From Dehalococcoidia bacterium (GTDB taxonomy: Bacteria; Chloroflexota; Dehalococcoidia; UBA2979), in assembly GCA_965247895.1 (NCBI GenBank), contig OZ252046.1, positions 951,140-1,015,139 of the forward strand: a DNA stretch of 64,000 nucleotides, written 5' to 3'. Below, in pieces: positions 8,387-52,083 of the stretch. The translations under genes and the position numbers were made by a program. Each line of letters opens with the position of its first letter. Within the stretch, counting starts at the first letter, position 1. The notes beneath the pieces are model-generated. The model had not been told where the DNA came from and made no database searches. It saw only the letters and a list, made by a program, of their open reading frames with translations.

Positions 8387-8392
8387 CCTGTC
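8111..8392 (+). repeat. Left copy (~282 bp) of an identical direct repeat. It is the native 3' end of the malic-enzyme gene; the right copy is at 10816..11097.
   Basis: Nucleotide identity from gctccgactacccgaaccaggtcaac... through ...gtcttcgtctag. The two copies diverge immediately after the stop codon. Confidence 0.85.
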
Positions 8393-10771: not shown

Positions 10772-10815
10772 GGGGCCATAGCTGTGGTGCGTCGGGGCAC
10801 GCGCTCTCCAACGGC

Positions 10816-11091
10816 CGCTCCGACTACCCGAACCAGGTCAACAACGTGCTCTGCTTCCCCGGGCTCTTCCGCGGCGCCTTCGACGCCGGCGCGAAGCGCA
10901 TCACCGAGGAGATGAAGCTCGTCGCCGCCCACGCCATCGCCGAGGTCATCCCCGACGACCAGATCAACGAGGACTACATCCTGCCCTCGGTCTTCAACGA
11001 GGCGGTCGCGCGCAACGTCGCCGCGGCAGTCGCCGCGGAGGCGCGCCGCACCGGCAACGTCCGCCAGCCCGGCTCGCGGGTCTTCGTCTAG
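10816..11091 (+). pseudogene. Duplicated 3' fragment of the malic-enzyme gene (last 81 codons, identical to 8111..8386). This is the right copy of the direct repeat.
   Basis: ORF 10846..11091 encodes MLCFPGLFRG...RVFV, identical to the malic-enzyme C-terminus. No upstream gene body is present. Confidence 0.8.
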
Positions 11092-11099
11092 GCTGTCGC

Positions 11100-31192: not shown

Positions 31193-32494
31193 ATGATTCG
31201 GCGCATCGCGATTCAAGGCTACAAGTCACTGCAGGATGTCAACCTGCGCTTGGATCCGCTGACCATCGTCATCGGGCCGAACGCCGCCGGCAAAAGCAAT
31301 CTCCTCGACGCGATCGGCCTGCTCAGCCGCACGGTAGAAGGCGACCTTCAATCCGCGTTCATGGAACACCGTGGCGAGCCTCTGCGCTCGTTCACGTTGG
31401 ATGAGACAGGCATCGAAGGCCTCATGACGCGCGCGAGTGCATCGTTCCGCCTGGACGTTGACGTCGAGCTGTCGAAGGCCACGGTGAATCAGGTGAACCG
31501 GACCATTAACGAGGCGCGCGAGGGCTACGAGCCCTCGCGCGCCCTCGTCCGCGAGACGCTCCTGCGCTACTCACTGGACATGCAGATCCGAACCGACTCA
31601 GGAGTCCTGCAAGTGATCGACGAGTCGCTGCACGCGCTGAATGTGGACCTAGGTGAGAAGCAGTCGCGTCGTCCGTTCCTATCAGCCGAGAACAAGTCCG
31701 GCGGCGTGAAGCGGCTTTCGCTGCGCCTCGAGCGCCAGAGCCACCCCTTCGAGCACGACCTCGGGATGGATCGAACTGTCGTGTCGCTCCCGCACTACGC
31801 GCCGCATCACCCCCACCTGGTGGCGCTCCGTCATGAACTAGCCTCGTGGCGAACCTACTATCTCGAGCCCGAGGCCATGCGCCAAGACTCTTCGCTGCGG
31901 GAGGTTAGGCGCTTACCTCACGATGGATCAGACCTCGCGGCGTTCTACAACACCATGGAGAAGGAGCACTCGCGCGTGTTCGACGCGATGAACCGCGCCC
32001 TGCGCGGCGTGCTGCCGGGGATCGAACGTGTCGGCGTTTCGACCACGGAGTCAGGGCGCCTCCGCCTCTATGTCATCGAACGGGGAGTACGTTTCGAGGC
32101 GAGCGCACTCTCGGAGGGCACGCTCCGTATCCTGGCCCTGATCGGCATCACCAACTCTCCGGAGCCCGCAGCAGTCATTGGCTACGAAGAGCCGGAGAAT
32201 GGTGTACACCCTGCCCGCCTCTCGTGGATCGCCTCGTTGTTCGAGGAAGCGTCTCGTGACGACACAACCCAGTTCATAATCAACACCCATTCGGCACAGT
32301 TTCCCGCGATGTTCTCTGGAGACGAGTCGCTCACCCTTCGTTGCTACAAGGAGAACGGTGTCACGAATTTCGAGGAAATCGACCGCGCACTCCCGTTGCT
32401 TGAGGACCTCGAGATCTCGGCCGCCCTCGACGAGAATCAGCCAACGCCGGTTTCGCCGCTCTCTGCGCGCATCGAGCGGGGCGACTTCCTCTAG
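31193..32494 (+). CDS. AAA_21/AAA_15-type ABC ATPase (OLD / AriA / GajA / RloA-like), first gene of a two-gene cassette
   Basis: Walker A GPNAAGKSN (residues ~28-36). After a ~250-aa insertion: signature-like LSEGTLRILAL, Walker B/D-loop VIGYEEPENGVHP, H-loop NTHS. Lower GC (~58-60%). Confidence 0.8.
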   Translation: MIRRIAIQGYKSLQDVNLRLDPLTIVIGPNAAGKSNLLDAIGLLSRTVEGDLQSAFMEHRGEPLRSFTLDETGIEGLMTRASASFRLDVDVELSKATVNQVNRTINEAREGYEPSRALVRETLLRYSLDMQIRTDSGVLQVIDESLHALNVDLGEKQSRRPFLSAENKSGGVKRLSLRLERQSHPFEHDLGMDRTVVSLPHYAPHHPHLVALRHELASWRTYYLEPEAMRQDSSLREVRRLPHDGSDLAAFYNTMEKEHSRVFDAMNRALRGVLPGIERVGVSTTESGRLRLYVIERGVRFEASALSEGTLRILALIGITNSPEPAAVIGYEEPENGVHPARLSWIASLFEEASRDDTTQFIINTHSAQFPAMFSGDESLTLRCYKENGVTNFEEIDRALPLLEDLEISAALDENQPTPVSPLSARIERGDFL

Positions 32495-33088
32495 GTGCGA
32501 GTTCTGTACGTCCTTGAAGACAACGCGCATGCGCAGTTCGTCCCACCACTCTTTCGGAGGATTGCGCGAGACGAAGTTGTAGATCTCGCCGAGCAGGAAC
32601 TAACACCGATGCGAGGCGACGGCCGTACGATTAGCGGCCTGCGGAGACTGCTCGCCGACATCAGGACTGGCAGCCCCACGCGGCCCGATCTGATCGTCGT
32701 TGGCATTGACGCGGACTGCAGCTCGCGAGGTGAGCGCGATCGGCAGGTCCACCGCGCATGCGAACTCGAAGGTTACGAGGGCGACGTCATCGTCGCCGAG
32801 CCGGACCCGCACATCGAGATTTGGTACCTCGCCGATCCTGTGCTCCTGCAGCAGTTACTCCAAACGCCAAGTCTCTCTGCTATACCGGACATTCGTTGCA
32901 AGAAGGACGAGTTCAAGAAGGAACTGCGCTCAATCGCGCTGTCGAGCGGGGCGCCCGCACCCCTAGGCGGAGTAGAGTACGGGCCGGAGATCGCGGAAGG
33001 CATGAACCTTTACCGGGCCGGCCGCAGTGTCGCGTCGCTCGGCCGGTTCGTCGACGCGGCGCGCGCACGCCTTCAAGCGCACGTGTAG
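32495..33088 (+). CDS. Small (197 aa) TOPRIM-like protein (E...DxD). Partner of the upstream ATPase.
   Basis: GTG start directly after the ATPase TAG stop. Conserved Glu in LYVLEDN (E8) and IVVGIDADCSS (D72, D74), spaced like a TOPRIM core. No other recognisable domain. Confidence 0.6.
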   Translation: MRVLYVLEDNAHAQFVPPLFRRIARDEVVDLAEQELTPMRGDGRTISGLRRLLADIRTGSPTRPDLIVVGIDADCSSRGERDRQVHRACELEGYEGDVIVAEPDPHIEIWYLADPVLLQQLLQTPSLSAIPDIRCKKDEFKKELRSIALSSGAPAPLGGVEYGPEIAEGMNLYRAGRSVASLGRFVDAARARLQAHV

Positions 33089-33108
33089 GGGCAGGCAGCG
33101 GAGGCGAG

Positions 33109-33912
33109 ATGCAGGACTTCGAGGGCAAAGTCGCCGTCATCACCGGCGGGGCGAGCGGGATCGGCTTCGGCATGGCCGAGCGCTTCGCCGCCGCGGGCAT
33201 GACGGTCGTCCTCGCCGACATCAACGAGGACGCCCTGCCGGAGGCCGAGTCGCGCCTCGCCGAGCGCGGCGCGAGCGCCCTCGGCGTGCCGGTCGACGTC
33301 GCCGATCCCGATCAGGTCGAGGAACTCGCGCGGCGCGTGCTGGACGAGTTCGGCGCGGTCCACGTGCTCTGCAACAACGCCGGGGTCAACTCCTCCGACG
33401 AGCCGATCTGGGAGGTCTCGCGGCAGGACTGGGAGCGCGTGATCGACATCAACCTGCGCGGGGTGATCCACGGCATCCGCGCCTTCCTGCCGCACATGCT
33501 CGCGCAGGACTCCGAGGGCTGCATCGTCAACACCGCCTCGGCGGCGGGCCTCGGGTCACGGCCGGGCATCTCGCCCTACGTGGCGACGAAGCACGCCGTG
33601 ATCGCGCTCAGCGAGTCGCTGCATCACGACCTCGTCGCGGAGGGGTCGAAGCTGCGCGCCGCGGTGCTCTGTCCGGGCCGCATCCGCACGCCGATGATGG
33701 CGGAACACCTGGAGCGCGAGGGCAAGGATGTCGAGGAGGCCGCGGCCGGCTACCTGCTCCCGAGCGAGGTCGGCGAGCTGGTCTTCCAGGCGATCCGGGA
33801 CGAGCGCTTCTACATCCTCACCCACCCCGAGGGCGAGAGGGATCGCGTCAGGGGGGCCGCAGACGATATCCTGCTCGGGCGCGACCCGACGCATTCGTCG
33901 CCGATCTACTAG
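33109..33912 (+). CDS. SDR-family oxidoreductase
   Basis: Motifs TGGASGIG, NNAG and YVATKHA. ATG preceded by ggagg. Confidence 0.85.
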   Translation: MQDFEGKVAVITGGASGIGFGMAERFAAAGMTVVLADINEDALPEAESRLAERGASALGVPVDVADPDQVEELARRVLDEFGAVHVLCNNAGVNSSDEPIWEVSRQDWERVIDINLRGVIHGIRAFLPHMLAQDSEGCIVNTASAAGLGSRPGISPYVATKHAVIALSESLHHDLVAEGSKLRAAVLCPGRIRTPMMAEHLEREGKDVEEAAAGYLLPSEVGELVFQAIRDERFYILTHPEGERDRVRGAADDILLGRDPTHSSPIY

Positions 33913-33945
33913 CCAGCCAGCGCGTCAGCCACGTCAGGAGCCCGT

Positions 33946-34374
33946 ATGACCAGCGAAGCACTCCTCCAGCCGCAGCCCGAGGGCATCCCGCTCCCGACTC
34001 CCTCCACGATCTCCGAGCCGCACTGGGAGGGCTGCAAGCGCGGTGAGTTGATGGTGCAGCACTGCCAGGACTGCGACGGCTACGTCTTCATCCCGCAGCC
34101 GGCCTGCACGCACTGCCAGAGCGAGAACCTGGAGTGGGTGCAGAGCAGCGGCAAGGGCACCGTCTACAGCTGGACCATGGTCTACCGCCCGCAACAGCCG
34201 AGCTTCGATACCCCATACGCCTCGGCGATCATCGAGGTCGAAGAGGGCTGGTACATGCTGACGAATCTGGTGGACGTCGCCGTCGAGGACGTGCGCATCG
34301 GCCTCCCCGTTGAGGTCGTCTTCCACGCCATCAACGACGAGACCACGCTCCCCTACTTCCGCCCCGCGGGGTAG
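33946..34374 (+). CDS. Zn-ribbon OB-fold protein (DUF35 family, thiolase/SCP-x accessory type)
   Basis: CxxC...CxxC (CQDCDG...CTHCQS) plus an OB-fold region. Confidence 0.75.
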   Translation: MTSEALLQPQPEGIPLPTPSTISEPHWEGCKRGELMVQHCQDCDGYVFIPQPACTHCQSENLEWVQSSGKGTVYSWTMVYRPQQPSFDTPYASAIIEVEEGWYMLTNLVDVAVEDVRIGLPVEVVFHAINDETTLPYFRPAG

Positions 34375-34404
34375 CGCCCCGGGGCCGTCCGCGCCCGCCC
34401 TCGC

Positions 34405-35262
34405 CTACGTCTCCGAGAACGCCGAGCCGCGGCGTTCGACGCCGCCGCCCGTGGCGTGGTCGATCACGCCGCACTCGACGAGGAAGGGCTGGCTGTGGAC
34501 CACGCGCCCGGACACACGCTCGGCGGGCTCGGAGACGAGCCACAGCGCCGCATGCGCCATGTGCTCGACCGGCTCCGTGACCGCCGCATCGAGGTTCGCA
34601 CCCGGCCCCAACTCGCTCGCCGTCGCACCCGGCGTCGGCACCAGGTTCGAGGGCGAGAGCGCGCTGACGGCGATGCGGTGCGGCCACAGCTCCGCGGCCA
34701 GCCCCTGCGTGAAGCGCTCCAGCGCCGCCTTCGAGGCGCCGTACATCGTCCCCGCATCGACGCGCTCCTGCTCGGCGTAGGGCCCGCGCCCGGGACCGCC
34801 CGAGGAGCTGGAGGAGATATTGCAGATCGCCCCCCGCCCGCGCTCGATCATCCCCGGCAGGACGAGCTGCGAGAGGTAGAACGGCGCGTGGATGTTGACA
34901 TCGAAGCCCAGCTTCCAGCGTCGCAGCGGGAACTCCGTGAGCGGGTGGTAGGTGGTCATCGCGGCGTTGTTGACGAGCACGTCGACGCGCCCGAAGGCGT
35001 CCACGGTCTGCTCGACGATCGCCTCGCAGCCTTCCTCGCTGCCGACGTTCGCCTGCACGGCGATTGCGGTTCCGCCCGCCTGCTCGATCGCCTCGATCGT
35101 GCCGCGCAGCGAGCCCTCGAGGCGGTGATCGCCCTCTTCCAGCGTGCGCGCGACGCAGGCTACCTGCGCGCCCTCGGCGGCGAACAGCTCGGCGATCGCC
35201 TTGCCGATGCCGCGGCTGGTCCCCGTCACGATCGCGACCCGATCGTCGAGCCGGCCCATCAT
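34405..35262 (-). CDS. SDR-family oxidoreductase
   Basis: Motifs TGTSRGIG, NNAA and YGASKAA. Start MMGRLDD inside track ORF 34405..35343. Confidence 0.8.
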   Translation of the reverse strand: MMGRLDDRVAIVTGTSRGIGKAIAELFAAEGAQVACVARTLEEGDHRLEGSLRGTIEAIEQAGGTAIAVQANVGSEEGCEAIVEQTVDAFGRVDVLVNNAAMTTYHPLTEFPLRRWKLGFDVNIHAPFYLSQLVLPGMIERGRGAICNISSSSSGGPGRGPYAEQERVDAGTMYGASKAALERFTQGLAAELWPHRIAVSALSPSNLVPTPGATASELGPGANLDAAVTEPVEHMAHAALWLVSEPAERVSGRVVHSQPFLVECGVIDHATGGGVERRGSAFSET

Positions 35263-35413
35263 CGCCTCCCGTTCTCGCGCGCACGTCGTGCGGCCTGCTG
35301 CGCCTGTCGCGAGCACTGTAGAGGGACACCGGCGGAGGCGCATCGGCGGCCTGTGCGCGTGACGTCGAGCGTCTTGCCGCTCTCTACCCCATCGCGCACA
35401 CTGGATTCGCCGC

Positions 35414-35489
35414 TCCCCGATAGCTCAATTGGTAGAGCGAGCGGCTGTTAACCGCTAGGTTCGTGGTTCGAGTCCACGTCGGGGAGCCA
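35414..35489 (+). tRNA. tRNA-Asn (anticodon GTT)
   Basis: TCCCCGA acceptor stem, anticodon loop CTGTTAA, T-loop GGTTCGAGT, then CCA. 76 nt. Followed by an AT-rich stretch gattatgtctcttatatattg. Confidence 0.85.
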
Positions 35490-35655
35490 GATTATGTCTC
35501 TTATATATTGAGCGGGAGCCACGACGGCTCACGCCCCCGAGCATGGCACGGCGGCCGGGGACTTCGGCAGGCTCGTCAGGCGGCACAATCCTGAGAGTGT
35601 CCGGTTCCCGGGCCGAGCGACGGGCGCCGGTCTCCGGCGACCCGCCGCAGCGAAC

Positions 35656-37826
35656 TCAGGAGCCTCCCGTGCCCGCACTCGGGAGCTCGGGCGCCTTGAG
35701 CGCGCACTCCTCGCGCAACCAGGACGTGACGCCATCGGCCGACACCAGGAGCCAGCCCACGCAGCGCCCAACTCCCTGACCGAGTACCTCGACCTCCGTG
35801 CCGTCCAGCCAGCCGCCGACGAGTCGTGCACCATCGGCGCAGTCGATACGGTGCGCGACACCCCTGCCGCCCGTATTCCCGATGATCCTCAGAGCCTCCG
35901 GCCCCACTGCCGCAGGCGCCGCGAATTCGACCAGATACGTCCCCCGCACCCACGAGCTGGCGCCGTCCGCCTGGACCCACAGCCAGCCCACGCAGCGCCC
36001 AACCCCGTGCGCGAGCGCCTCGACCTGCGTGTCGTCCAGCCAGCCGCCGCCGTCCGAGCGTCGCGCATCATCGGCACAGTCGTCGCGCTGCGAGACGCCG
36101 TCGCCGCCGGTATTCCCAATCAGCCACCAGATCGTCGGGGCCAGCGCGGGAACACCGCCCGAGTCGACGACCTGCTCGGCGCGCGCCCACGAGCTGACGG
36201 CGTCCGCCCGCACCCAGAGCCAGCCCGTGCAGCGCCCAACCCCCTGAGCGAGAATCTCGACCTCCGTGCCGTCCGGCCAGACGCCGCCGTCCGAGCCTCG
36301 CGCATCCTCGGCACAGTCGCTGCGGTGCGAGACGCCCTCGCCGCCCGTGTTGCCGATCAGCCTGCGTGGCCCCGGATCCGGCGGCTCGACCGGCTCCGCT
36401 GTCTCGACCGGCTCCGCCGGCTCGTCCGGCTCCAGCGTCCCGTCCGGCTCCGCTGTCTCGACCGGCTCCGCTGTCTCGACCGGCTCCGCTGTCTCGACCG
36501 GCTCCGCTGGCTCGTCGGGCTCCGCTGGCTCGCCGGGCTCCGCTGGCTCGTCGGGCTCCGCTGGCTCGTCGGGCTCCGCTGTCTCGACCGGCTCCGCTGT
36601 CTCGACCGGCTCCGCTGTCTCGACCGGCTCCGCTGTCGCCACCGGCTCCGCTGTCTCGACCGGCTCCGCTGTCTCGACCGGCTCCGCTGTCTCGACCGGC
36701 TCCGCTGTCTCGACCGGCTCCGCCGTCTCGACCGGCTCCGCTGCATCTTCGCGGCCTGGAGGGTGCATGATTCGCACTCGGTAGACACGCGAGCGATGAC
36801 CATCTTCGGAGGTGACGGTGACCGTGATCTCCGCGATCTCCTCCAGCGCCAGCTGATGCCCGTTCTCCGGATTCCCATCTGCGTCATCGGGAGCGATCAC
36901 CACGGTCGCTCCCGGCCGCATGGCGCGTGCATCAATGACTACGCGGCCGGTCGCGACCCCTTCGTAGCCGGTGCGGCTGCTTGTGAAGTCGCCAATCTGG
37001 ACGCCGACCAGTCTCAGCAGGGCGAGGCGGGTGTCCGCGCTCGCGCGCAGCTCGGTGGTGAAGTAGACGCGGTCGTCGGCGAGGTCGCCGACGTAGATCA
37101 GGCCTCCATCGGACCAGAGACCTCGCGTCTCTCCGTTCTCGTTGCGGACCCTGAACTCCTCGTCACGGACGCGCACGAGGTCGTCTCCCTGCAACTGATA
37201 CGCGAACAACCTCGCGCTGCCCCTCTCGGAGACCAGGATCACGTACCCATCCGACCAGAGCCCGTGCGGGTCGTTGTTGGCCGGATCGAGCGAGTAGACG
37301 CCGAGCGTTTCCCCGGTCGCAGGTCGTAGCTGAAGAGACTGTCCGTGCCGCCATCCAGCACCCACATCGTGTCGCCGTCGGACCAGATGCCTCGGGCGTG
37401 GGCGTTGCGTTCGTCGAGCCTGATGTCCCGCTCCGGAAGCGGCGTCCTGGTCTCCATGTCGTAGGCGAAGACCCGGTCCTGCCCGCTGTCGGAGACCCAG
37501 GCCGTCTCGCCGTCGGACCACAGGCCGCGCGGGGCCACGTTGCGCCTGGCGAGCTTGAAGTCGAGCTCCTCGAGGCGCTCGCGGCTCTCGATGTCGTAGG
37601 CAAAGACGCCGTCGTCGGCCCCGACTCCGTTCCAGGCTACCCACAGCGTCTCGCCGTCGGACCAGAGTCCCGTCGTGACGCCGCAGCCGGGTTGAGGAGG
37701 GTCAAGACTGCAGGTGGCTCCCGAGGCTGCCGGAACCGCGCCACCCAGATGCGCGAACAGGAGAACCAGAGCAACTATTGCCGAGCTGGCCGCAAGCCGG
37801 GCATACGTCCTCGCCTCGACCGCCAT
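35656..37826 (-). CDS. Giant secreted surface protein B: signal peptide, WSDG beta-propeller blades, 18-bp-unit acidic tandem repeat (PVETAE)n, three C-terminal SH3b-like Cys-containing domains. A single-base frameshift near 37305..37325 splits it into track ORFs 37239..37826 and 35656..37644.
   Basis: N-terminus MAVEARTYARLAASSAIVALVLLFAHLGG. Blades GLWSDGETLWVAWNG...FAYDI and GIWSDGDTMWVLDGGTDSLFSYDL. At the junction one frame reads ...DSLFSYDLRPGKR and the other ...RPATGETLGVYSLDPANNDPHGLWSDG. C-terminal repeats IGNTGG[DE]GVS[HQ]R.DC..DAR.S.GG.W.DGTEVE.L..GVGRC.GWL.V.ADG..SW.R. Confidence 0.65.
36376..36750. repeat. About 20 tandem copies of an 18-bp unit (gtctcgaccggctccgct and variants) encoding (PVETAE)n/(PDEPAE)n inside gene B
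   Basis: Read directly. Coding low-complexity repeat, not CRISPR (units are contiguous, no spacers). Confidence 0.8.
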
Positions 37827-38006
37827 GATTGCAGCCCTTCCTGTCCGGCTTCGGGAGACGCGACACGCACACCCCTCGACCGGTGTACGGGGTGAGGATT
37901 CTAAAGGATCGGCGAGACGCAGCGCGCGGACTCCGGAAAACGCAATTGTCGATGCGTGAGGCGAATCGTGGGCGCGGCACGACCTCTGCCCGGATCGCGG
38001 CCCTCG

Positions 38007-41000
38007 CTAGTCTCCGGCGCCCGTACCCGATCCGGGGGTGTACTCGACCACGTACTGCTCGCGCACCCACGAGGTGACGCCGTCCGCCTGCACACGCAGC
38101 CAGCCGGCGCAGTCGCCGCTGCCCTCCTCGAGGACCTCGACCTCCGTGCCGTCGGACCAGCCGCCGATCTTGGACACCCGCGCGCCATCGGCGCAGGCGC
38201 TGCGGTACGAGACGCCGTCCCCGCCCGTGTTCGCGATCACCATCCAGATCTCCGGCGCCGAGGCCATGCCGCTGGACTCGACCACGTACTGCTCTCGCAC
38301 CCACGAGCTGACGCGGCCAGCCTGCACACGCAGCCAGCCCGCACAGTCGCCGCTGCCCTCCTCGAGTATCTCGACTTCCGTGCCGTCGTACCAGCCGCCG
38401 ATCTCGGAGAGGCGTGCGTCGTCGGAGCACCGGTTGCGGTGCGAGACACCGTCGCCGCCCGTGTTCCCGATCACCCACCGGATCTGCGTGGCGGCAGCGT
38501 CCTCCGTAGCCGGGGTCTCATCCGCAGCCGGGGTCTCATCCGCAGCCGGGGTCTCATCCGCAGCCGGGGTCTCGTCCGCAGCCGGGGTCTCGTCCGCAGC
38601 CGGGGTCTCGTCCGCAGCCGGGGTCTCGTCCGCAGCCGGGGTCTTGTCCGCAGCCGGGGTCTCGTCCGCAGCCGGGGTCTCATCCGCAGCCGGTTCATCG
38701 TCCGTGGCACTCGGCGTCGGCGCAGCCTCGGCGGGCCCGAGCAGGTATTCCTCGCGCACCCACGAGGTGACCCCGTCGGCCTCCGCCCAGAGCCAGCCGG
38801 CGCAGCGCCCGCGGCCGTCGGCGAGCACCTCGATCTCCGTGCCGTCTGCCCAGCCGCCGATCTCGGAGAGGCGCGCGGCATCGGCACACTCGTTGCGGTG
38901 CGAGACGCCATCGCCGCCCGTGCTCCCGATCGCTCGCCCGGTCTGCTCGCCCGCGGCGGCGGGAGAGAACCCGAGAACGTAGTCCGTGTGCACCCACGAG
39001 GTGGCATCGTCGGCCTGTACCAGGAGCCAGCCCTCGCAGCGCCCGCGGCCCTCGCCCAGCACCTCGACTTCCGCGCCGTCCGACCAGCCGCCTACCGCGG
39101 AGACGCGTGCCTCAGCAGCGCAGTCGGTGCGGTGCGAGACGCCGTCGCCGCCGGTGTTGCCGATCACTGGCTGGGCCTGCGTATCCGGCGCCACGCCTGT
39201 ACCTGGCGTTGGCGTCGGGGCCGGCGTGGCGGTGGGCGTGGGGGCCGGCGTGGCGGTGGGCGTGGGGGCCGGCGTGGCGGTGGGCGTGGGGGCCGGCGTG
39301 GCGGTGGGCGCCGGGGCCGGCGTAGCGGTGGGCGCCGGGGCCGGCGTGGCGGTGGGCGCCGGGGCCGGCGTAGCGGTGGGCGCCGGGGTCGGCATCGGCA
39401 GATCGTGCTGGGCGACGAACGGTGTGCTGGGAGGAACGCCCTCGGGGAACAGATCCACGAACGGGCGGTTCACGAGCTCGGTCCCCTCGATGAGCAGCGG
39501 CACCCACTCCCCTTCGGGGTCGTCCCAGACCGCTATCAACTCGAACTCGCGCATGCACTCCTGGAGCTCCGCTACGCTCCCGCCCGCGTAGATGGTGAGA
39601 TCGAAGCGGCCTCCCCTCACGCCGATCAGGCACTCGGCGGGCGTCGGGAGAGCGCGCTGCGCGACGAACGGAGTGCTGGCGGGAACGCCATCGGGGAACA
39701 ACGCGACGAACGGGCGATTCACGAGCTCGGTCCCGCCGATCAGCAGCGGCACCCACTCCCCTTCGGGATCATCCCAGACCGCCATCAACTCGAACTCACG
39801 CATGCAGTCCCTGAGCGCCGCCAGGCTCCCGCCCGCGTAGATGGTGAGGTCGAAGCGGCCTTCGGTCAGGCCAATCAGGCACTCGCCCTCGGGCTCCGCG
39901 ACTACCGGCGCCTCGGTGGGCGTCGGCAGAGCGCGCTGGGCGACGAACGGAGTGCTGGCGGGAACGCCATCGGGGAACAACGCGACGAACGGGCGATTCA
40001 CGAGCTCGGTCCCGCCGATCAGCAGCGGCACCCACTCCCCGTCGGGATCGTCCCAGACCGCCATCAACTCGAACTCGCGCATGCAGTCCCTGAGTTCCGC
40101 CAGGCTCCCGCCCGTGTAGATGGTGAGGTCGAAGCGGCCTTCGGTCAGGCCAATCAGGCACTCGCCCTCAGGCTCCGCGGCTACTGGCTCCTCGATCGGC
40201 GGCTCGACAACCGGGGGCTCCTCGATCGGCGGCTCGACAACCGGGGGCTCCTCGATCGGCGGCTCGACGACCGGGGGCTCTTCGACGGGCGACTCGACAA
40301 CCGCCACAATCTCGATCTGGACGCGGTAGGTCCTGGTCCGGCTGCCGTCCTCCGAGGTCACCGTGACCGTGATCTCGCTGCCGTCCAGCAAGACCTGGTG
40401 CCCGTTCCGCGCGTTGCCGTCCGCGTCGTCGGGCGCGATGACGATCGTGGCGTCGTCCTGCACCGCCACGGCCGTGACCGTCGTCTCGGTCGCGCCATCG
40501 GCGGGGATGCCCGTGTACTCGGTGCGGTAGCTCGCGAACTCGCCGATCTCGACGTCGCTCAGCGTCAGCGAGGCGAGCCGCGCGTCGAACGCGGCCGGCA
40601 TGTTGTAGGTGTAGATCTTGTCGTCGTTGGCATCGACGACGTACATCAGGCCGCCGTCGGACCAGATGCCGCGCGGGCTGTTGTTGCCGGCGCCCCTCAG
40701 CTCCGTGAAGTCCTCGTCGGATTCGCGAGCGAGCCCGCCGTTCTCGAGGTGGTAGGCGAAGATCTTCCGCTCCCCGTCGTCCGAGACCCAGATCGCCACG
40801 CCATCGGACCAGATGCCTTGCGGATCGTCGTTCGCGCTCGCCAGCGCGAACTCGCCGAGGCTTTCGCCGCTGGCGAGGTCATACCTGACGATGATGTCCC
40901 TGCGGGCATCGAGCACCCACATGGCGTCGCCGTCCGACCAGATACCGCGGGCATCGCCGTTCCTGGAGGACAGAACGAACTCGGCATCCCCGACGCGGTC

Positions 41001-44000
41001 GCCGCTCTCCAGGTCGTAGGCGAAGAGCCGCTCCTGGCCGCTGTCCGAGACCCACATCGTCTCGCCGTCGGACCAGACGCCGCGGGGGGCGCGGTTGTCT
41101 TCGGCGAGCTCGAACTCGAGGTCCTCAAGGCGGTCGCCGCTCCAGCGGTCGTAGGCGAAGACGCCGTCGTTGGCGCCGTCGCCGTTCTGGCCCACCCACA
41201 GCACCTCGCCGCGGCCCCAGAGACCCGTCGGATCGTCGTTGGCGGGATCGAGGTCGATGTCACCCGTCACGTGCCACTCGAAGTCCTCGTCGCTCGGGGT
41301 GGGGCCGATGGGGGTAAAGGGGATGAAGGGGATGGTGCCGCCACCGGTGTTGGTGTTCCCGCCGGTGTTCCCGGGGTTGTCCCAGTTGTGCTCGATGACG
41401 TCGGTGACGGTGATCGTCACCGTGATCTCGGCGGTCGCGAGGGACGGATCCGTCGCCGTGACAATCACGGTGTAGCTCGACTTCTCCTCGTAGTCGAGGA
41501 AGGTCGAGGTCCGCAACTGGCCGGACAGCGGGACGATAGCGAAGGAGTCTCCGTCCGTACCGCTGAGGCTGTAGGTCAGCACCTTGCCTTCGGGATCGGT
41601 GGCGATGACCGGGAGCCCGATGTTCACGTTCGGGGCCGTCTCCTCCGGCACGCTGCGCTGTCCCGTTTCGCTCGAGGGGAAGGTGGGGGCGTTGTTGCTG
41701 GTCGGCTCGGCGAGGACCGCGTTCAGTGTCCGCTGGACCTGGTCGGCACCGGTCACCGCGTCGGTGTAGTCGGCGGTGACGCGGATGACGTCGCCGACAT
41801 CGTCCGCGACCGGCGCGTACGAGGACGATGAGGTATTCGGCGTGGTCTGATGCGTCAGGGTCGTCCAGGTGACCTGGTCCGGGGACTTCTCCCAGGTCCA
41901 TGTCGTGACGGACACGCCGCCGTCGGGGTCGTCCACGGTTGCGAGCAGCGCCGTGCCCACCTGCGGTTGCTCCGAGGAGAAGAGGAGCTGGCCGTCGTCC
42001 TCGGCGTTGGTGATCGTGACGGTGATCTGCTCGATCGTCATGCTCTCGCGGTCACCGCTCCCGCTCATCGCCATGACCGTCACGCGATAGACGTTACTGT
42101 CGTCGACGCTGCGGGGATCCTCGTAGTCCGCGCCGTGCGCCGCCCTGAAGGACAGCACTCCGGCACTGGTGATCGCGAACATCCGCCCGTCGTCCTCGGG
42201 AACTGCAGCCTTGAGGATGAAGGTAACGCTGTCCTGGGTATCGGGATCCTCGGCCACCACCGTCCCGACGGCCTGCGTGTTCTCCGCGACGGTGAGTCCG
42301 GGCGTGCTGAACGTCGGGCTGTTGTTGGTGATGTTCTTGACGGGGAGATCGGTCAGCGTCCCCGCAGGAGTTCCGTCGTCGTCCTGCAGCGGGCTCGTCT
42401 GCGGTGGCTGGTAGCTCACGGTGACCGGCTCGCCACCGACGACCGCCGACGCCAGGGTCAGCGTCACCGTCATCCCGCTGACCGACACGGTGTTCACCGC
42501 GCGTGGCACGGTGTCCACCTTCACCGTGTACGCCGGCTCCGAGGCCTCATCGAGCGCCTTGTTGTAGGTGAGCGTCAGCGTTTCGCCGTCCACCACTGCC
42601 GAGTCATTGGTCGAGACAAGCGACGGGGCACGTCGGTGTTGTTCGTGATGGGAACGTCCGTGAGCGGCGCCGCGTCTTCCCCGTCCAGGTCTTGCAGGGG
42701 ATCCGTCGAGGGCGGCACGTCGTAACTCAGACGCACGGTCTGGCCAGCCAACACGGGCGTGGAGAGCATCAGCGTTACGGTCACCTCGCTGATCTCGACG
42801 TCGCTGACCGTGTGCGTCGTGCTGTCGGCGGTCACCGTGTACGTGGTCGTCGCCGGCTCCGAGTCCGGGTCGAGGGCCTCGCTGTACATCAGCGTCAGCG
42901 TGTCGCCGTTGACGACGCCGCTCAGGTGCACGTAGACGGGCGGGTCCGGCTGGGTGCTGTTCGTGACGGGGTGGTCCCTGAGCGCCACCGCGTCGGCGCC
43001 TTCGGAGTCCTGCACCGGGCTCTCGTCCGGCGTGTAGCTCACGAGGGCGATGTCGCTCGCCACCACGGCCGGGTCGAGCGTGAGCTTCACGGTGCTCCCG
43101 CTGACCACCACGGCGGTCACCACGTGGTCACTCGTCGAGTCGTTGACCGTGACGGTGTAGTCCTCCGGGTCCGGCTGCGAGCCGGTGTCGAGCGCCTCGC
43201 TGTAGGTCAGTGTGAGCGTGTCGCCGTCGACGGTCGCGTCGGAGATCGACGGCGGCGCGTTGGTGTTGGTGCTCGACCCGCAGACGGTGAGGCCGTAGAA
43301 CTCGAAGTTGTCGGGGTCGACCATGAACCGAAGGTCGGTGGTCTCGACATCGAGCAAGAGCGGCGGCACGCAGCCTGTCCATGCGTTGGCGCCAAGATTC
43401 AGCCTTCGCAGTCCGGGCAGCAGTTTCTCGAGTTCCGATGGGATCGATCCCGTGAGCAGATTGTCACGCAAGTCCACGTCCGTGAGCGGCAAGCTGCCAA
43501 GTCCCGGTGGGAGAGTCCCCGTGAACCCGTTCCCATAAAGCGTCAAGGATCCCAGCTCAGAAAGTTCGGTGATCTCTGTCGGTATGGGCCCGGAGAATCT
43601 GTTCCCATGCAGGCTCAACGTCATCAGCTTGGTGAGGTTCTTGATCTCGGCCGGGATCGTTCCCGTGAGGCCGAGTCCACCGTGGATGTTCTTGTTGCCG
43701 TGGAGACGCAGCGTGCGCAGCTCCGTGAGGTCCCATATCTCCGACGGTATGTCGCCGTCGAGGTTGTTTCCCCCTAGATCCAGGTGCTGCAACGTCTCTT
43801 TGAGCTTCCCCAGCTCCGACGGGATCCCGGGTTCGTAGTACAGATTCCGGGGGTCGTCGTAGTTGAGTGGACTGCTGAACCTGTTGTAACTGAGATTGAG
43901 CGTTACCAGATTCGGAAGGTCCCCGAGTTCCGGAGGGATCGGACCGGACAGCTGGTTCTGCTTCAGGTTTATCGTGACCAAACCCGTGAGCACCCCGATG

Positions 44001-44452
44001 GCTGCCGGCATCCTCCCGTTTAGCCGGGGCGGCGTCGTAGGAGTGCCACCGCCCGAATCCAGAATTATCGAAGTCACCCGCCTGGGCGAGCCCCCGGCGG
44101 TGATCCCCTCCCACGTCGATATTTCCTTGCTGGCGCTCCAGTCGAGCCGTCGCCGGACGTTGCTGGTGCCCTCGAGCGTCTCCTTCAACCCCGCCAGGAC
44201 CCTGCAATCAGCGACAAGCTCGGCGTTGTCCGCGGCATCCTCGACAATGACGCCGTCGTCGCAAGCTTCCGGATCCACCGGTGTCGCCGGCACATCCACT
44301 GCCAGGGCCGTCTGCTGCACGGCCAACATGGCGACCGCGACCGCGACGACGAGGAGCCAGCGGCTCACGAGGCGCCTCGCAGTGTGCTGTTGCCCGCGAG
44401 TGCGGGGACGCGGGCGTGGACCTGCTCCGCGTCGCGAGGGTCTGCGGCGCAC
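38007..44452 (-). CDS. Giant (~2150 aa) secreted surface protein C. N to C: signal peptide; plant-type LRR N-cap + ~8 LRRs; >=5 Ig-like 'GDTLTLTYSEALD' beta-sandwich repeats; cadherin-like modules; WSDG beta-propeller; (VVEPPIEEPP)n; 3x ~95-aa Cys-containing domain; (TPAPTA)n; (DETPAA)n; 4x SH3b-like domains. A frameshift near 42618..42628 splits it into track ORFs 42575..44452 and 38007..42596.
   Basis: LRRs: LTGLVTINLKQNQLSGPIPPELGD, LTKLMTLSLHGNRFSGPIPTEITE. N-cap CDDGVIV...ADCRVLAGLKETL...W.GIT. Junction: the 625-aa frame ends ...PITNNTDVPRRLSRPMTRQWWTAKR*. The -1 frame reads ...SLVSTNDSAVVDGETLTLTYNKALDE, matching the intact repeat junctions. Propeller blades GVWSDGETMWVSDSGQERLFAYDL and others. 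Confidence 0.65.
38505..38700. repeat. About 11 tandem copies of an 18-bp unit (cagccggggtctcatccg) encoding (DETPAA)n in gene C
   Basis: Read directly. Confidence 0.8.
39405..40160. repeat. Three near-identical ~240-bp tandem copies encoding a ~95-aa Cys-pair domain (AEPEGECLIGLTEGRFDLTIY.GGSLAELRDCMREFELMAVWDDP.GEWVPLLIGGTELVNRPFVALFPDGVP), flanked by (TPAPTA)n at 39196..39396 and a 30-bp x3.5 repeat at 40187..40300
   Basis: Read directly from the translation of the 38007..42596 ORF and the underlying DNA. Confidence 0.75.
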
Positions 44453-44658
44453 AGGTGCACCGGGTGCTGCGAGTCATTGCCAGCGTAGGGGACGCGAGGC
44501 ACCAAGGGGCAACCCTACGGACTATCCCCCACCGCCTGAGTATTGTACACGCGCCTACCCGGTATCGCCAATGCAGGCATCCCGGCATCGGCGCGGCTGA
44601 ACTGGTCCTGGGAACGCGCCCGTGTGGAATCGGAGGTCGACCGCCTGGCCTCGGGCGA

Positions 44659-46982
44659 CTACCCCTCGACGGTCAGCCGCGGCAGGATGCGATCGAGCCA
44701 GCCCGGCAGCCACCAGTTGCGCTCGCCCAGCAGCGCCATCGTCGACGGCACCAGCAGCATCCGCACCACCGTCGCATCGAGGAACACCGCGACGGCGAGG
44801 CCCAGCCCGAACATCTTGAGCGTGCGGAAGTCCTCGAACACGAAGCTGCCGAAGACGACGACCATGATCGCGGCGGCGGCGGTGATCAGTTGCGCCGTCG
44901 AGGCGAGCCCGTCGGCGACGGAGTCGATCGCCTTGCCCGTGCGCTGGTACGCCTCCCGCACGCGTGAGAGCAGGAACACCTCGTAGTCCATCGAGAGCCC
45001 GAAGACGATGGCGAACAGCATCATCGGGATGAACGGGTCGATCGGCCCACCGGCGATGCCGATCAGCGAGCCCAGCCAGCCCCACTGGAAGATCGCCACG
45101 ACCACGCCGAAGGCCGCCGCGATCGAGAGCAGGTTCATGAGCACGGCCTTGATCGGCACGATGATCGAGCGGAAGACAACCATCAGCAGCACGAACGAGA
45201 GCGCGAGCACCGCGCCGACGAACAGCGGGGTGCGCCCGGACAGGTAGGTTGTGAAGTCGATGCTCGATGCCACCGAGCCGGTGACGTTGACGTCCAGCGT
45301 GCTGCCGGCGACGGCGGACGGTACCACCTCGCCGCGCAGATTCCTCACCAGGTCGGACGTTGCCGCGTCCTGCGGGGCCGTCTCCGGGACGACCTCGATC
45401 AGGTAGGCGGAAGCGTTCGCGGGGTCGGAGAGATCGCTCGGCAGCGGGCCGGTCGCGAGCGCCACACCGTCGGCGTTGCCGAGCGCCACGAGGAGCGGCT
45501 CGAGCGCCGCGCGGTCCTCCGCGACAGTGGGCTGGGCGGTGATGATCAGCGGCCCGTTGAAGCCGGGCCCGAAGCCTTCGGCCAGCAGATCGTAGGCGCG
45601 CCGCGTCGTCGTCTCCTCGGGGTTGTTGCTTTCGTCGGGGAAGTTGAGGTGCAGGGAAGGGATGGGGACGGCCAGCGTCAGCAGCAGCACAACTCCGACG
45701 GACAGCCCCACCCAGGGATGCGCCTGGACCAGCCGGCTCCAGCGCCAGGCGAGCGTGCGTTGCAGCGGCCGCGGCGCGCGGCGCGGGACAATCGCTCGCA
45801 GCGGCGGCAGCACGGACCCGGCCAGCAACACCAGCAGCGCCAGTGGCACGCCCAGCAGCAGCGGCCGGAACCCCAGACCCACGCCGAGCAGCGCCATCGC
45901 CCCCAACCCGGCGGCGATCAGTCCTCGCCAGCGCGTGATCTCGATACGCTCGCGTACGAACCCGATCAGCGCGGGCAGCAGCGTCACCGACGCGATCATC
46001 GTCGCGGCAACCGTCAGCGTCGCGCTGATGGCCAGCCCGGTCACGAAGGGAAGCCCGACCAGGACCATGCCAAGCAGCGAGATCACCACCGTCGTCCCGG
46101 CGAAGATGACGGAGCGCCCCGCGGTGTCCATCGCCCGGGAGAGCGGCCACACCGGTCCACCGCCGCCAGTGTGGATCCCGTCGCGGTAGCGGCTGACGAT
46201 GAACAGCGCGTAGTCGATGCCGACGCCGAGCCCGATCATCGCGCCGATCGACACCGCGAACTCGGGAATCGCGAGCAGGTTCGAGAGCAGCGAGGTGAGC
46301 GCCGCGCCGACGCCGACGCCGGCGCCCGCCACTGCGATCGGCAACCCCATCGCCAGCACCGAGCCGAACGCCAGAATCAGCACGACGACGGCGAAGGCGA
46401 GGCCGATGAACTCCGACTCGGGCGTCTCGAACTGCGCAAGCGCGTCACCGGCGATCTCAACCTGCAGGCCGGGCTGATCCGGCGCAAGCGGCCGATCCCG
46501 GCTCCGATCTCCGATGCCCGCCCGAAGTCGACATCCGGGGAGAAGTTCACGTTGGCGTACGCGATGCGGCCGTCGGCGCTGATCTGATGCAGTCCCTCCG
46601 GCGCGTACGGACTGCTTACGGTCACGCCCTCGATCGCCGCGACCTCCTCCAGCATCTGCTCGATGGCGGCGCGCACCTGCGGGTCGTGGACACCGGACTC
46701 GGCGCGGAAGACGATCGCCCCGCTGGCGCGGCTGGCGAGTTCGCCGAAGTGCTCCTCGAGCACCTCCCGTCCGTTGCGGCTATCGGATGCGGGTGCGTCG
46801 AACTGGGTATCGAACCGCGAGCCCACCGCAAACATCGCGACGACCACCGCGGCGATCAGCGCGACCCAGACCGCGAGCGTCTTGCGCGGATTGCTGAAAC
46901 ACCAGACGCCGAGCCGGGCAAGCATCGGATCCCCCGTGCGGGCGGGCGCATCGCCGAGGAGGCAGGCAGAGCGCGCACCCAT
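44659..46982 (-). CDS. MMPL-family (RND superfamily) membrane transporter, interrupted by a single-base frameshift near 46478..46490. Track ORFs are 46377..46982 (N-terminus) and 44659..46383.
   Basis: N-terminus MLARLGVWCFSNPRKTLAVWVALIAAVVVAMFAVG...NFSPDVDFGRASEIGAGI. Then the frame switches to ...LAPDQPGLQVEIAGDALAQFETPESEFIGLAFAVVVLILAFGSVLAMGLPIAV. The Arg/Ser-rich tail of the upstream ORF is junk. Confidence 0.7.
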
Positions 46983-49791: not shown

Positions 49792-49974
49792 CACAGAGCC
49801 GCTCGCCCGCGCGGCCGCCGTCCCTGGACTCCGCCCGCACCCAATCCCCGCATTGGACACAGCACTCAAGCGCCCCGTGATGCACCCGGGCAGCCTGATC
49901 TGGAACCGCACGCCCGCCGGCGACGTCAAGAACCCATCACACCCCGCATCGCAGCGGGGGGATGGGACAGCCCG

Positions 49975-52083
49975 ATGCGGATCATTCTCAGATCGTTCTC
50001 GCCCTCCCTCCTCCTAGCGGCCGCGCTGACGGCGAGCGTCCTCGTTGCATGCAGCGGCGGAGCGGACGACCGGCCTCTGCCGCCAGCCACGCCTGCACCG
50101 GCGGCCACCGCCACGTCAGTCGAAGCAGCCTCGCCCGCGCCTGCACCGACAGGCACCGCGACGCCCACCGCCTCGCCCACGCCTGCACCGACCGCCTCCG
50201 CGACGCCCACCACCGCGCCCACCACCGCGCCGATAGCCGCTCCGGCGCCCAGCGCCTCGCCCACGCCCGCGCCGACAGGCACCCCGACGCCCACCGCCTC
50301 GCCCACGCCCGCGCCGACCGCCACCCCGACGCCCACCGCCTCGGCCACGCCCACGCCGGCGGCCACGCCGAGGCCCACCGCCACGGCCACGCCCGCGCCG
50401 ACCGCGACTCCGACGCTCTGCCCACCAACCGCTTCCCCCGAGGCAGCCACATCCACCCCCGCCGCGGCTGCAATGGGGACCGGGTTGGTCAGCCGCGAAG
50501 ACCTCGGCATTCGCGAGGTCGATACCGCCGAGGCGCTCGCGGCTGCTGGTCTCCGCTACGTGCGCTGCGCGGCGGGGGAGGTCGTCTCCCAGGAGGTCGG
50601 GCTCTACCTGCTGGACGTGCAGACGGGCGCCGTGGAGGGGTGGGTGCTGGCATCCGTCGAAGCAGCCGCAGCGGACTCGATGGATGGCTTCGTATCCGCC
50701 GGTGTGAGTCTCTCGCCGGGGAACCGCTTCCTCTCCTTCGATCGATTCCGGCACGACCGCGTGACCGAGCGAACCTTCGAATGGGACGCGCCTCCGCTGC
50801 GACGGTGGGGATCGGACAGCGAGCGGCGGCTGCTCTTCCGGCTGGCGGACGAGGGTGGCGACCTCTTCGTCATCACGGACGGCGCGCTGCAACCCGTGGC
50901 GCAGTTCGCGATCCCCGACGGGCAGGAGGGCCAGCTCCAGTGGCTCAACTTCGAATACCGCTCGCTCGTCGTGCGCGGCCGGGAGCGTGACGGAGGATTG
51001 CACTCCTCCCTGCACTTCTTCGACTTCAGCGAGGAGGCCGTCGGGACCTTCGAGCCGGCCGCAACGCAGCTGCTGCCGGGGACCACGAACACCTGGAGCG
51101 AGGGGCTGTACCGGCTGAGTTCCCTCGGTTCGGCCATCGAGGTGGCGATTGCGGGCCCCGACTCCTGCCACGTCATGCACTACGGCTGGGACGGGGCGAC
51201 GCTGCTCGATGTCTCTGTCCCGGTCGTGCCGCTGTACGGCCGAGGTGACTGCCGCATCTCCCCGGATGGCCGCTGGCTGACGGCGGTTACGGCAACGGGC
51301 GCCAGCGGCACCGCGTGGGGCGCTCGACTCATGGCCGTCTCCATTCTCGATACGACCACCGGCGACGAGGTCTACCGCGTCAAGGGCGTGGACGGCCCCG
51401 GCCGGTGGCTTCCCGACAGCTCCGGCGTCTCCATGAGCACCAGCCGGGGCACGCGGTTCGTGACCCTCGACGGACAGTGGGCGAGCGAGGCGCCGCGACC
51501 GACGAGCGTGAGCGCCAAACCGGCTCCCGCGATCGCCAAGCCGGCCCCGGCCCCGACGCAACCGCAGTACCGGATCGACCACAACCGGAGAAGGGTCACC
51601 GTCCGGGACCATGAGGGGGAAACGCTCGCCTCGCTGCACTTCGTCGAGACCAGCACTCCCTTCTTCGGGTACCCCGGCATCTCCGGCTCGTGGACCGGCA
51701 CGCGTGACGAGCTGCGGGTCCGGGTGTCGATCGTCCCCGGCGGCCGTTGCGGGTGTGGCGGGGACTACAGTGGCCCGCCGCCTCTCGCCCCCGTGATCGA
51801 GTCGCCGCCGTTCGAGGACCGGCTGCAGGTCGAGGTGGTCGTCGACAGCTGCCTGCGCCTGCGCGACGAGCCATCGCTCCGCGCTGCGGTCGTGACCTGC
51901 CTCCCCAACGGCGTCATCGCGGACACGGACGGCTACACCGTCGACTACTACGACTACGTTCCGTGGATGCACGTGCGCACCGCCGACGGCCTCGAGGGCT
52001 GGGCCAGCGCCGACTACCTGCGCTGGGCATCGGACGGCGTGCAGCTCGAGGGCGAGCGGCTGCCCATCAGCGGCGGCGTATAG
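49975..52083 (+). CDS. Secreted lipoprotein with a long Pro/Thr/Ala-rich linker and a C-terminal SH3b-like domain
   Basis: Signal MRIILRSFSPSLLLAAALTASVLVACSGG (lipobox VAC). About 110 aa of (PTPTASPTPAPTA)n. C-terminus ...CLRLRDEPSLRAAVVTCLPNGVIADTDGYTVDYYDYVPWMHVRTADGLEGWASADYL. Confidence 0.7.
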   Translation: MRIILRSFSPSLLLAAALTASVLVACSGGADDRPLPPATPAPAATATSVEAASPAPAPTGTATPTASPTPAPTASATPTTAPTTAPIAAPAPSASPTPAPTGTPTPTASPTPAPTATPTPTASATPTPAATPRPTATATPAPTATPTLCPPTASPEAATSTPAAAAMGTGLVSREDLGIREVDTAEALAAAGLRYVRCAAGEVVSQEVGLYLLDVQTGAVEGWVLASVEAAAADSMDGFVSAGVSLSPGNRFLSFDRFRHDRVTERTFEWDAPPLRRWGSDSERRLLFRLADEGGDLFVITDGALQPVAQFAIPDGQEGQLQWLNFEYRSLVVRGRERDGGLHSSLHFFDFSEEAVGTFEPAATQLLPGTTNTWSEGLYRLSSLGSAIEVAIAGPDSCHVMHYGWDGATLLDVSVPVVPLYGRGDCRISPDGRWLTAVTATGASGTAWGARLMAVSILDTTTGDEVYRVKGVDGPGRWLPDSSGVSMSTSRGTRFVTLDGQWASEAPRPTSVSAKPAPAIAKPAPAPTQPQYRIDHNRRRVTVRDHEGETLASLHFVETSTPFFGYPGISGSWTGTRDELRVRVSIVPGGRCGCGGDYSGPPPLAPVIESPPFEDRLQVEVVVDSCLRLRDEPSLRAAVVTCLPNGVIADTDGYTVDYYDYVPWMHVRTADGLEGWASADYLRWASDGVQLEGERLPISGGV

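Follow-up and report, generated by a model that had tools for sequence, protein, structure and literature searches.

Internalin B of Listeria consists of an N-terminal leucine-rich repeat (LRR) region, an Ig-like region and C-terminal SH3-like GW modules. Here we describe two neighbouring genes, B and C, from a Dehalococcoidia bacterium (UBA2979), situated next to tRNA-Asn in a 64,000-nucleotide (nt) stretch of contig OZ252046.1 (assembly GCA_965247895.1, positions 951,140-1,015,139, forward strand), which is called the window below and whose positions are used throughout. Both genes are interrupted by a one-base frameshift, and their restored products combine a hydrophobic, signal-peptide-like N-terminal segment with a beta-propeller, named here after its WSDG motif, and C-terminal SH3b-like modules. 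In metagenome-assembled genomes (MAGs) of sponge-associated bacteria, LRR, cadherin, fn3, PQQ, NHL and PD40 domain classes have been found to be enriched (PMC8163846, PMC9531527), and sponge SAR202-type Dehalococcoidia have been reported to be without peptidoglycan synthesis genes (PMC6306507).

Comparison with relatives suggests that B and C are probably normal, functional genes in the bacterial population, which would encode Sec-exported adhesin-like surface proteins, and that their lesions are most likely artefacts. The propeller, as modelled, has a fold that is already known, and the proteins that carry it are of a known kind.

Reading frames of genes B and C

The relatives of the window are at least eight contigs of the same species cluster, reached through conserved neighbouring genes; the GTDB genomes L014 and L015 also belong to the comparison set. 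L004 and L008 are the same contig (ctg1294), and the sister contigs L013 and L011 are labelled with coverages of 9x and 11x, respectively. The homologue search apparently returned no protein longer than about 1.75 times its query, and full-length orthologues were obtained via neighbouring genes and cluster members.

The four open reading frames (ORFs) and the two one-base joins described in the original prediction, which was made from the sequence alone, do exist. Gene B comprises ORFs 37239..37826 and 35656..37644 on the reverse strand, and restoring one base joins them into a frame of 723 residues with no internal stops, which is also the length called for the orthologue on L009. The upstream frame reads DSLFSYDLRP and the downstream frame ATGETLGVYSLDPANNDPHGLWSDG; the restored protein spans the junction as ...FSYDLATGETLGVYSL.... 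At this site the coding strand of the window has gctacgacc-tgcgaccgggg (aligned stretch gacc-tgcgacc), and all eight aligned relatives (seven related contigs, L004-L011, and L013) have the extra base and read gaccttgcgacc. The missing base is one T of a coding-strand TT, visible on the forward strand as a single A at 37321 versus AA in the relatives. The shift had been placed near the ccccgg/gggg runs at 37305..37325, and it does lie within that range, albeit at a TT dinucleotide and not in a G/C run. The claim that B, C and a third family member, gene A, are all broken at G/C homopolymers is correct for A (C7, 3501..3507) and C, and incorrect for B.

Gene C comprises ORFs 42575..44452 and 38007..42596 (reverse strand), and a single restored C yields 2148 residues with no other stop. 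The lesion, predicted in a cccc run at about 42618..42628, is located in the run at 42625..42628: the window reads gtg-ccccgtcg, the closest relative L013 has five C (gtgcccccgtcg) and L004 has tccccc (gtgtccccctcg), so that the extra base is present in both. Across the junction the restored protein reads ...TNNTDVPPSLVSTNDSAVVDGETL..., and its residues 399-2148 are collinear with the intact 2108-residue protein P0399 from a 2.65-Mb contig (86.7% identity). The true start of C is likely the GTG at 44368, giving 2120 residues in agreement with the called orthologue fragment P0126.

Orthologues of B are intact in L005, L006, L007, L009, L010, L013 and L014, with lengths of 699, 699, 711, 723, 681 and 727 residues on six contigs and 687 residues in L014; B is broken on ctg1294 and on L011. 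Gene C is intact in relatives with 2190, 2190, 2320 and 2178 residues, besides P0399 and a 1786-residue ORF in L014, and is broken on L013 at two sites other than that of the window.

We consider it probable that the base missing from each gene is a consensus error of the long-read metagenome assembly, because the lesions are single-base, the restored frames are clean, and similar lesions are scattered on low-coverage sister contigs. Every lesion is a one-base deletion within a run of identical bases. Frameshifting is not confined to the WSDG gene family, since the MMPL transporter gene beside C (44659..46982, reverse strand) is also shifted: it is split into ORFs of 201 and 574 residues by the loss of one base at 46489, where the window has AAG-CGG and L013 has AAGCCGG. 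The L013 copy of this gene is itself split elsewhere (415 + 350 residues). In all, L013 has C broken twice and MMPL once, and L011 has broken copies of B, of a ChsH2-like gene and of a 5'-3' exonuclease gene. A pairwise census of insertions and deletions (indels) found several frameshifting indels on L011 and essentially none on the Mb-scale contigs, except for two in one hypothetical 159-residue gene on L005. Consensus errors would arise where strain divergence is high. Nucleotide identity to the relatives is 97-99% for most flanking genes, the exception being the 5'-3' exonuclease gene (93-95% between strains), and 92-97% for B and C.

Several points weigh against this account. The assembly-error explanation, probable as it is, is unproven and rests on comparison with relatives. 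All four frameshifts of the window are in envelope or surface genes (A, B, C and MMPL), with none in the roughly 35-40 other window genes checked (p ~0.007 under uniform error), a clustering that would fit true decay of genes the cell can do without, or else errors that gather where strains vary. At B and MMPL the runs are of 2 nt, not classic homopolymer error sites. As to function, the roles proposed below for the propeller and the SH3b modules are deduced from predicted fold and architecture alone, and the SH3b modules may have a target other than the cell wall, given the reported lack of peptidoglycan synthesis genes (PMC6306507).

The frameshifts could also be real, with B, C, A and MMPL being recent pseudogenes in a symbiont population whose surface and envelope proteins are under relaxed or diversifying selection. 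We regard this as possible, though rather unlikely. The concentration of the lesions in envelope and surface genes within 64 kb, with the pyr operon, the short-chain dehydrogenase/reductase (SDR) genes, the alcohol dehydrogenase (ADH) gene and the other checked genes intact, would agree with it, yet it would take four separate inactivations, all very recent, within a single strain, which is a lot to assume. B and C diverge more between strains (92-96% nucleotide identity) than most of their flanks, but signs of purifying selection are retained (dN/dS 0.22-0.36 for the propeller and Cadherin-like region of B), and secondary lesions are absent from restored frames that remain open over 723 and 2148 codons. 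B, C and MMPL are independently broken on other contigs of the species cluster, but these broken copies are on short or 9x-11x contigs, housekeeping genes being broken on L011 as well, and the Mb-scale contigs carry intact copies. That two of the sites are just 2-nt runs remains in favour of true lesions. Should the lesions of B and C be genuine, for which we see a limited chance, they would be very recent and strain-specific.

Functional shifts, whether by programmed ribosomal frameshifting or by phase variation through slipped-strand mispairing at homopolymers, are highly improbable: although surface proteins are the classic class of contingency loci and genes A and C are broken at C7 and C4/C5 tracts, the TT of B is without a slippery heptamer, the tract of C is 4-5 nt only where a phase-variable locus has one of at least 7 nt, L004 is in frame with a different sequence, orthologues are plainly in frame with no conserved shift signal, and the transporter gene MMPL bears the same type of lesion. 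The frameshifts are ordinary, being probably artefacts or otherwise recent lesions. Frameshifts in long-read MAGs split large surface-protein genes, and the reads should be checked before such genes are called pseudogenes.

The WSDG propeller and the proteins that carry it

Gene B, which at 723 residues does not deserve the predicted label of giant, is a short paralogue of the C-terminal half of C. The paralogy was rightly recognised: the cassette of propeller and Cadherin-like sandwich is 55% identical between B and C, and the SH3b modules are 50-62% identical. The assignment of these modules as SH3b-like is likewise supported, as SH3_3 (PF08239) matches C in three stretches with 37.7 bits (cut-off 27, E=2.4e-9); the Pfam scan gave no SH3_3 match for B itself. 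The Cadherin-like domain of B scores 23.1 bits, just under the PF12733 cut-off, and is homologous to the C copy, which passes. The pairing of propeller and Cadherin-like domain recurs in many homologues. No LPXTG motif was found in C.

The C-terminal modules, of the form IGNTGGDGVSHR...W, and the Pro/Glu/Thr-rich linkers are visible in the translations of the named ORFs. The linkers are encoded by tandem arrays, in B of 18 nt x19.9 and in C of 18 nt x10.6, 24 nt x8 and 30 nt x3.9, and differences in linker copy number between strains account for the length ranges of B (681-727 residues) and C (2108-2320 residues). C also contains a domain of about 85 residues (ECLIG..GRFDLTIY..C..FVNRPFV..FPDGVP) for which no Pfam, NCBIfam or Protein Data Bank (PDB) match was found; the homologue search recovered only three small proteins of 133-168 residues, and an AlphaFold2 (AF2) model of its three copies was discarded (pLDDT 41.7).

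We propose that B and C would be exported via Sec by means of their N-terminal signal peptides, and that three or four disulfide-containing SH3b modules, arrayed at the C-terminus, would hold them on the cell envelope or on a matrix polymer. The low-complexity linkers of variable copy number would act as spacers, and the five-bladed WSDG propeller with its Cadherin-like sandwich would form a ligand-binding head, which in C would be extended by the LRR, SWM Ig-like and cadherin domains. The propeller would be a non-catalytic binding scaffold, because every strongly conserved residue in it is repeated from blade to blade.

B and C each have exactly five blades with the motif G[ILV]W[SG][DR]G. 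Blades of the WSDG type are thus present as predicted, with a period of 43-49 residues where about 42 had been given. In neither protein is the repeat covered above threshold by a Pfam or NCBIfam model, in line with the earlier remark that it was not recognised as a named family; SGL (PF08450) stays at 19.9 bits, below its cut-off of 26.3. In the profile comparison that had been suggested, PD40 (PF07676), NHL (PF01436), YVTN, PQQ_2 and also Ldl_recept_b (PF00058) are not listed for B or C at E<=1. Among 56 family members, PD40 is absent from the 25 most often matched families (of 41 at E<=0.01), and NHL, YVTN and Ldl_recept_b have no match among the families listed. The commonest Pfam matches of these members are to part of NCH3 (53/56), SGL (29/56), Lactonase (18/56) and PQQ_2 (PF13360; 15/56, too weak for membership), and there are weak sequence matches to virginiamycin B lyase as well. 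NCH3 (PF22729, NACHT C-terminal helical domain 3) reaches a summed score of 39.5 against a cut-off of 27, at residues 137-164 of B and 1116-1140 of C. This identity was rejected, as no single stretch passes, the match is limited to positions 35-62 of the 74, the modelled region is all-beta where NCH3 is a helical domain following a NACHT NTPase, and a NACHT domain is absent; the match is regarded as a spurious artefact of summing over repeats. Public data are likely to be mis-annotated where all-beta propellers pass the NCH3 gathering score in this way.

An AF2 model of the 240-residue domain of C, built on an alignment of 56 sequences, is a five-bladed propeller (pLDDT 93.3, pTM 0.91), and with the structural matches it supports the earlier reading of the repeat as a beta-propeller. 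According to DSSP, blades 3 and 4 have four strands, blades 1 and 2 three long strands plus short bridge segments, and blade 5 three strands. The best Foldseek matches are plant- and bacterial-type glutaminyl cyclases (TM 0.72-0.74); glutaminyl cyclase and YjiK are followed by NHL proteins, identity to all of these being 10-19%, and BamB structures rank low (TMq 0.44-0.47). The suggested likeness to PD40/TolB blades did not hold, PD40 being unlisted and the nearest folds lying elsewhere. The model shares the five-bladed fold of glutaminyl cyclase (PF05096), and membership of its sequence profile was not found. In the alignment each blade repeats the nearly invariant columns once (W-S-D-G, W..D, A-Y, R, F, N), and no blade-specific polar invariants point to an active site.

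A more far-reaching reading is that the propeller and Cadherin-like cassette is a major but unrecognised kind of module for host or matrix recognition, lectin-like with a site on each blade, specific to sponge Chloroflexota and present in dozens of copies per genome, with the single-base disruptions being real on/off variation in the population. We think this doubtful. It is likewise doubtful that the propeller is a surface-displayed enzyme, for instance glutaminyl-cyclase-like or lactonase-like. The weak matches to SGL, Lactonase and virginiamycin B lyase would favour an enzyme, but identity to the cyclases is just 10-15%, Glu_cyclase_2 and SdiA-regulated are both missing from the Pfam matches at E<=1, and near-invariant residues that repeat in every blade, with no polar ones confined to a single blade, form a structural-repeat pattern. 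The domain also occurs up to dozens of times in one giant protein, a habit common among binding repeats.

The WSDG family is very large: 719 homologues came from a word-indexed search, and when the representatives of clusters at 50% identity were searched exhaustively, 6551 matched at E<=1e-3 and 1334 at E<=1e-30, including proteins of 5000-6400 residues; one protein of 5143 residues has 35 matched WSDG stretches. The pattern [IL]WSDG[VTA][TA]xWV occurs at no fewer than 598 places in GTDB species representatives. The best 80 of these at least 598 loci are almost all in Dehalococcoidia, Tepidiformaceae or 'Chloroflexi' MAGs, 14 of the 80 being on chromosome OZ244720.1 and nine on one other chromosome. 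On OZ244720.1, six WSDG-propeller loci (L025, L045, L056, L060, L063, L086) lie within about 110 kb at ~597-709 kb, and on OZ253575.1 four (L016, L018-L020) lie within about 65 kb at 3.616-3.681 Mb; such dense clusters indicate tandem paralogue arrays in related genomes. In Dehalococcoidia MAGs the family has expanded. Judging from the names of related MAGs the lineage appears to be sponge-associated, as SB06xx, IRC1 and MPNM names presumably denote sponge metagenome studies. No description of the WSDG propeller repeat was found in the literature search, and the sole source name found for the family is the NCBI label 'PQQ-binding-like beta-propeller repeat protein'. With thousands of members, one of them already labelled by NCBI, the family is not rare, contrary to what the original prediction had implied.

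Gene order around tRNA-Asn

The positions of the features are listed in Table 1. The B/C locus is vertically inherited and not an island, because the order C, B, tRNA-Asn, SDR is conserved: it is kept in all related contigs and in L014. In L015 a C-like gene is followed by tRNA-Asn, with no separate B gene. The neighbours of B and C are ordinary metabolic genes. The predicted position beside tRNA-Asn is correct, whereas no integrase turned up among the neighbours covered by the Pfam scan, and the proposed island-borne nature is not supported. It is most unlikely that a mobile genomic island inserted at tRNA-Asn carries B and C as its cargo: B does adjoin the tRNA gene, and strain-variable insertion sequence (IS) elements and toxin-antitoxin genes occur near it in L004 and L007, but the locus is present throughout the conspecific contigs and L014 in the same order, the Pfam scan found no integrase among the neighbours it covered, and the GC content of the locus (0.64-0.73) is within the range of the window. 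There is no presence/absence polymorphism of the kind shown by a tRNA-integrated island; direct repeats of the tRNA end were not specifically searched for.

Table 1. Window coordinates of the features of genes B and C and of the adjoining tRNA gene
Feature	Position	Strand	Remarks
tRNA-Asn (GTT)	35414..35489	+	166 nt from B stop codon; neighbour of B in all related contigs
Gene B	35656..37826	-	Signal peptide, five-bladed WSDG propeller, Cadherin-like sandwich, AEPVET linker, three SH3b modules
B, putative N-terminal signal peptide, MAVEARTYARLAASSAIVALVLLFAHLGGAVPAASGA / T	37716..37826	-	Predicted by reading the translation
B, five-bladed WSDG propeller, residues 48-262	37042..37685	-	55% identical to modelled C propeller
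B, frameshift site	37320..37322	-	Between strands C and D of blade 3
B, Cadherin-like beta-sandwich, residues 265-355	36763..37035	-	PF12733, E=1e-4
B, Pro/Glu-rich linker AEPVET	36361..36762	-	18-nt unit x19.9; copy number varies between strains
B, three SH3b-like modules, two Cys each	35659..36360	-	50-62% identity to SH3_3-positive modules of C
Gene C	38007..44452	-	2148 residues counted from GTG at 44452
C, putative signal peptide, (M)SRWLLVVAVAVAMLAVQQTALA / VDVP	44297..44368	-	Start fits P0126; cleavage site predicted
C, leucine-rich repeats, plant-type LxxLxLxxNxLSGxIP	43349..44149	-	LRR_8 E=2e-16, 59.9 bits; LRR_1; LRR_4
C, three SWM_repeat Ig-like domains	42330..43255	-	PF13753 E=2.3e-36, 124.3 bits, three stretches
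C, frameshift site	42625..42628	-	Junction of SWM repeats 2 and 3
C, cadherin-domain region	41388..42326	-	PF00028 E=6.4e-14, 52.6 bits, two stretches
C, five-bladed WSDG propeller, residues 1053-1292	40578..41297	-	Segment modelled
C, Cadherin-like beta-sandwich, right after propeller	40308..40577	-	PF12733, 31.0 bits vs cut-off 24.2
C, three copies of ~85-residue domain ECLIG...FVNRPFV..., residues 1430-1688	39390..40166	-	
C, four SH3b modules in two pairs, ETPAAD linker (18 nt x10.6) between	38010..39164	-	SH3_3
Linker tandem arrays (18-, 18-, 24- and 30-nt units)	36385..36743, 38503..38693, 39204..39393, 40186..40303		

A search for intrinsic terminator-like sites gave none in 35380..38100, a range that takes in the intergenic regions between C and B and between B and the tRNA gene, and none upstream of C in 44300..44700. 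Upstream of C there is one weak promoter-like site, at 44571..44542.

Gene content around the conserved locus is variable, as a comparison of L004/L008, L007 and L005 with window positions 31193..35400 indicates. L007 has an IS21 element (IstA/IstB) between the SDR gene and tRNA-Asn, and is devoid of the AAA_21/AbiEii-like ATPase gene found in the window at 31193..32494. A nucleotidyltransferase toxin-antitoxin cassette occurs in L004 and L007, and a DDE transposase in L004.

Elsewhere in the window, gene A (1..5547, reverse strand), which runs off the window start, has two more divergent WSDG propellers and, by eye, fn3-, spondin-like and cadherin-like regions; its frames join at the C7 run mentioned above. 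A direct repeat of 298 nt (8095..8392 and 10800..11097, 98% identical) makes a second copy of the 3' end of the gene for malic enzyme (6920..8386) and brackets a 2.7-kb segment with an ABC-2 permease gene; the arrangement could have come from an insertion that duplicated its target, or from faulty assembly. A further ORF with a C-terminal SH3_3 domain (49792..52083, forward strand) differs by many small indels from L013, in which several short genes are called in its place, and is possibly another variable or frameshifted surface-protein gene.

Comparison with known systems

Existing concepts are left unchallenged by B and C, and the case, which involves no new kind of system, is mainly of use for annotation. 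Its wider relevance is that a very large propeller family is without a dedicated profile and is labelled 'PQQ-binding-like' or, spuriously, as NACHT 'NCH3'. Pfam-based censuses of sponge-symbiont adhesion proteins therefore probably miss or misname it. A dedicated hidden Markov model (HMM) and a binding assay with a recombinant domain would provide a handle on symbiont-host contact.

The closest folds are those of glutaminyl cyclase (3mbr, 3nol, 3nok, 2iwa; Glu_cyclase_2) and the C-terminal domain of E. coli YjiK (3qqz). The WSDG domain, just 10-15% identical in sequence, differs from both in being internally repetitive, in being set in multi-domain exported proteins and in having no Pfam match, and its alignment gives no sign of the catalytic site of the cyclases, the conserved columns being the periodic structural ones. 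With NHL, YWTD (LDL-receptor class B) and SGL propellers it shares the plan of the blade, in which the first strand has 'P.G[IV]..D', the second is aromatic with 'W..D' and the third is hydrophobic; unlike these six-bladed families it has five blades, and its scores are sub-threshold.

At the level of whole proteins, C resembles the SwmB-type giant surface proteins in having three SWM_repeat domains in a large exported repeat protein, but these repeats are a minor part of C and a link with motility is not indicated. The eukaryote-like repeat and adhesion proteins of sponge symbionts have the same domain vocabulary as B and C and probably the same habitat. In the censuses of such proteins the Pfam models miss the WSDG propeller, apart from weak PQQ_2 or SGL and spurious NCH3 matches, and it has probably been undercounted there and never described as a family.

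The plan of C also resembles that of surface proteins of the internalin B type, with N-terminal LRRs, Ig-like repeats and a C-terminal array of SH3 type without an LPXTG motif. Differences are that the GW domain itself is unmatched in C (16.5 bits vs 21), that C adds cadherin, propeller, Cadherin-like and unassigned domains, and that its host, unlike that of internalin B, is a member of the Chloroflexota that may be without peptidoglycan or teichoic acids (PMC6306507). By analogy, the design of C would be that of a non-covalently retained, ligand-binding surface protein, as in the internalin-type proteins.

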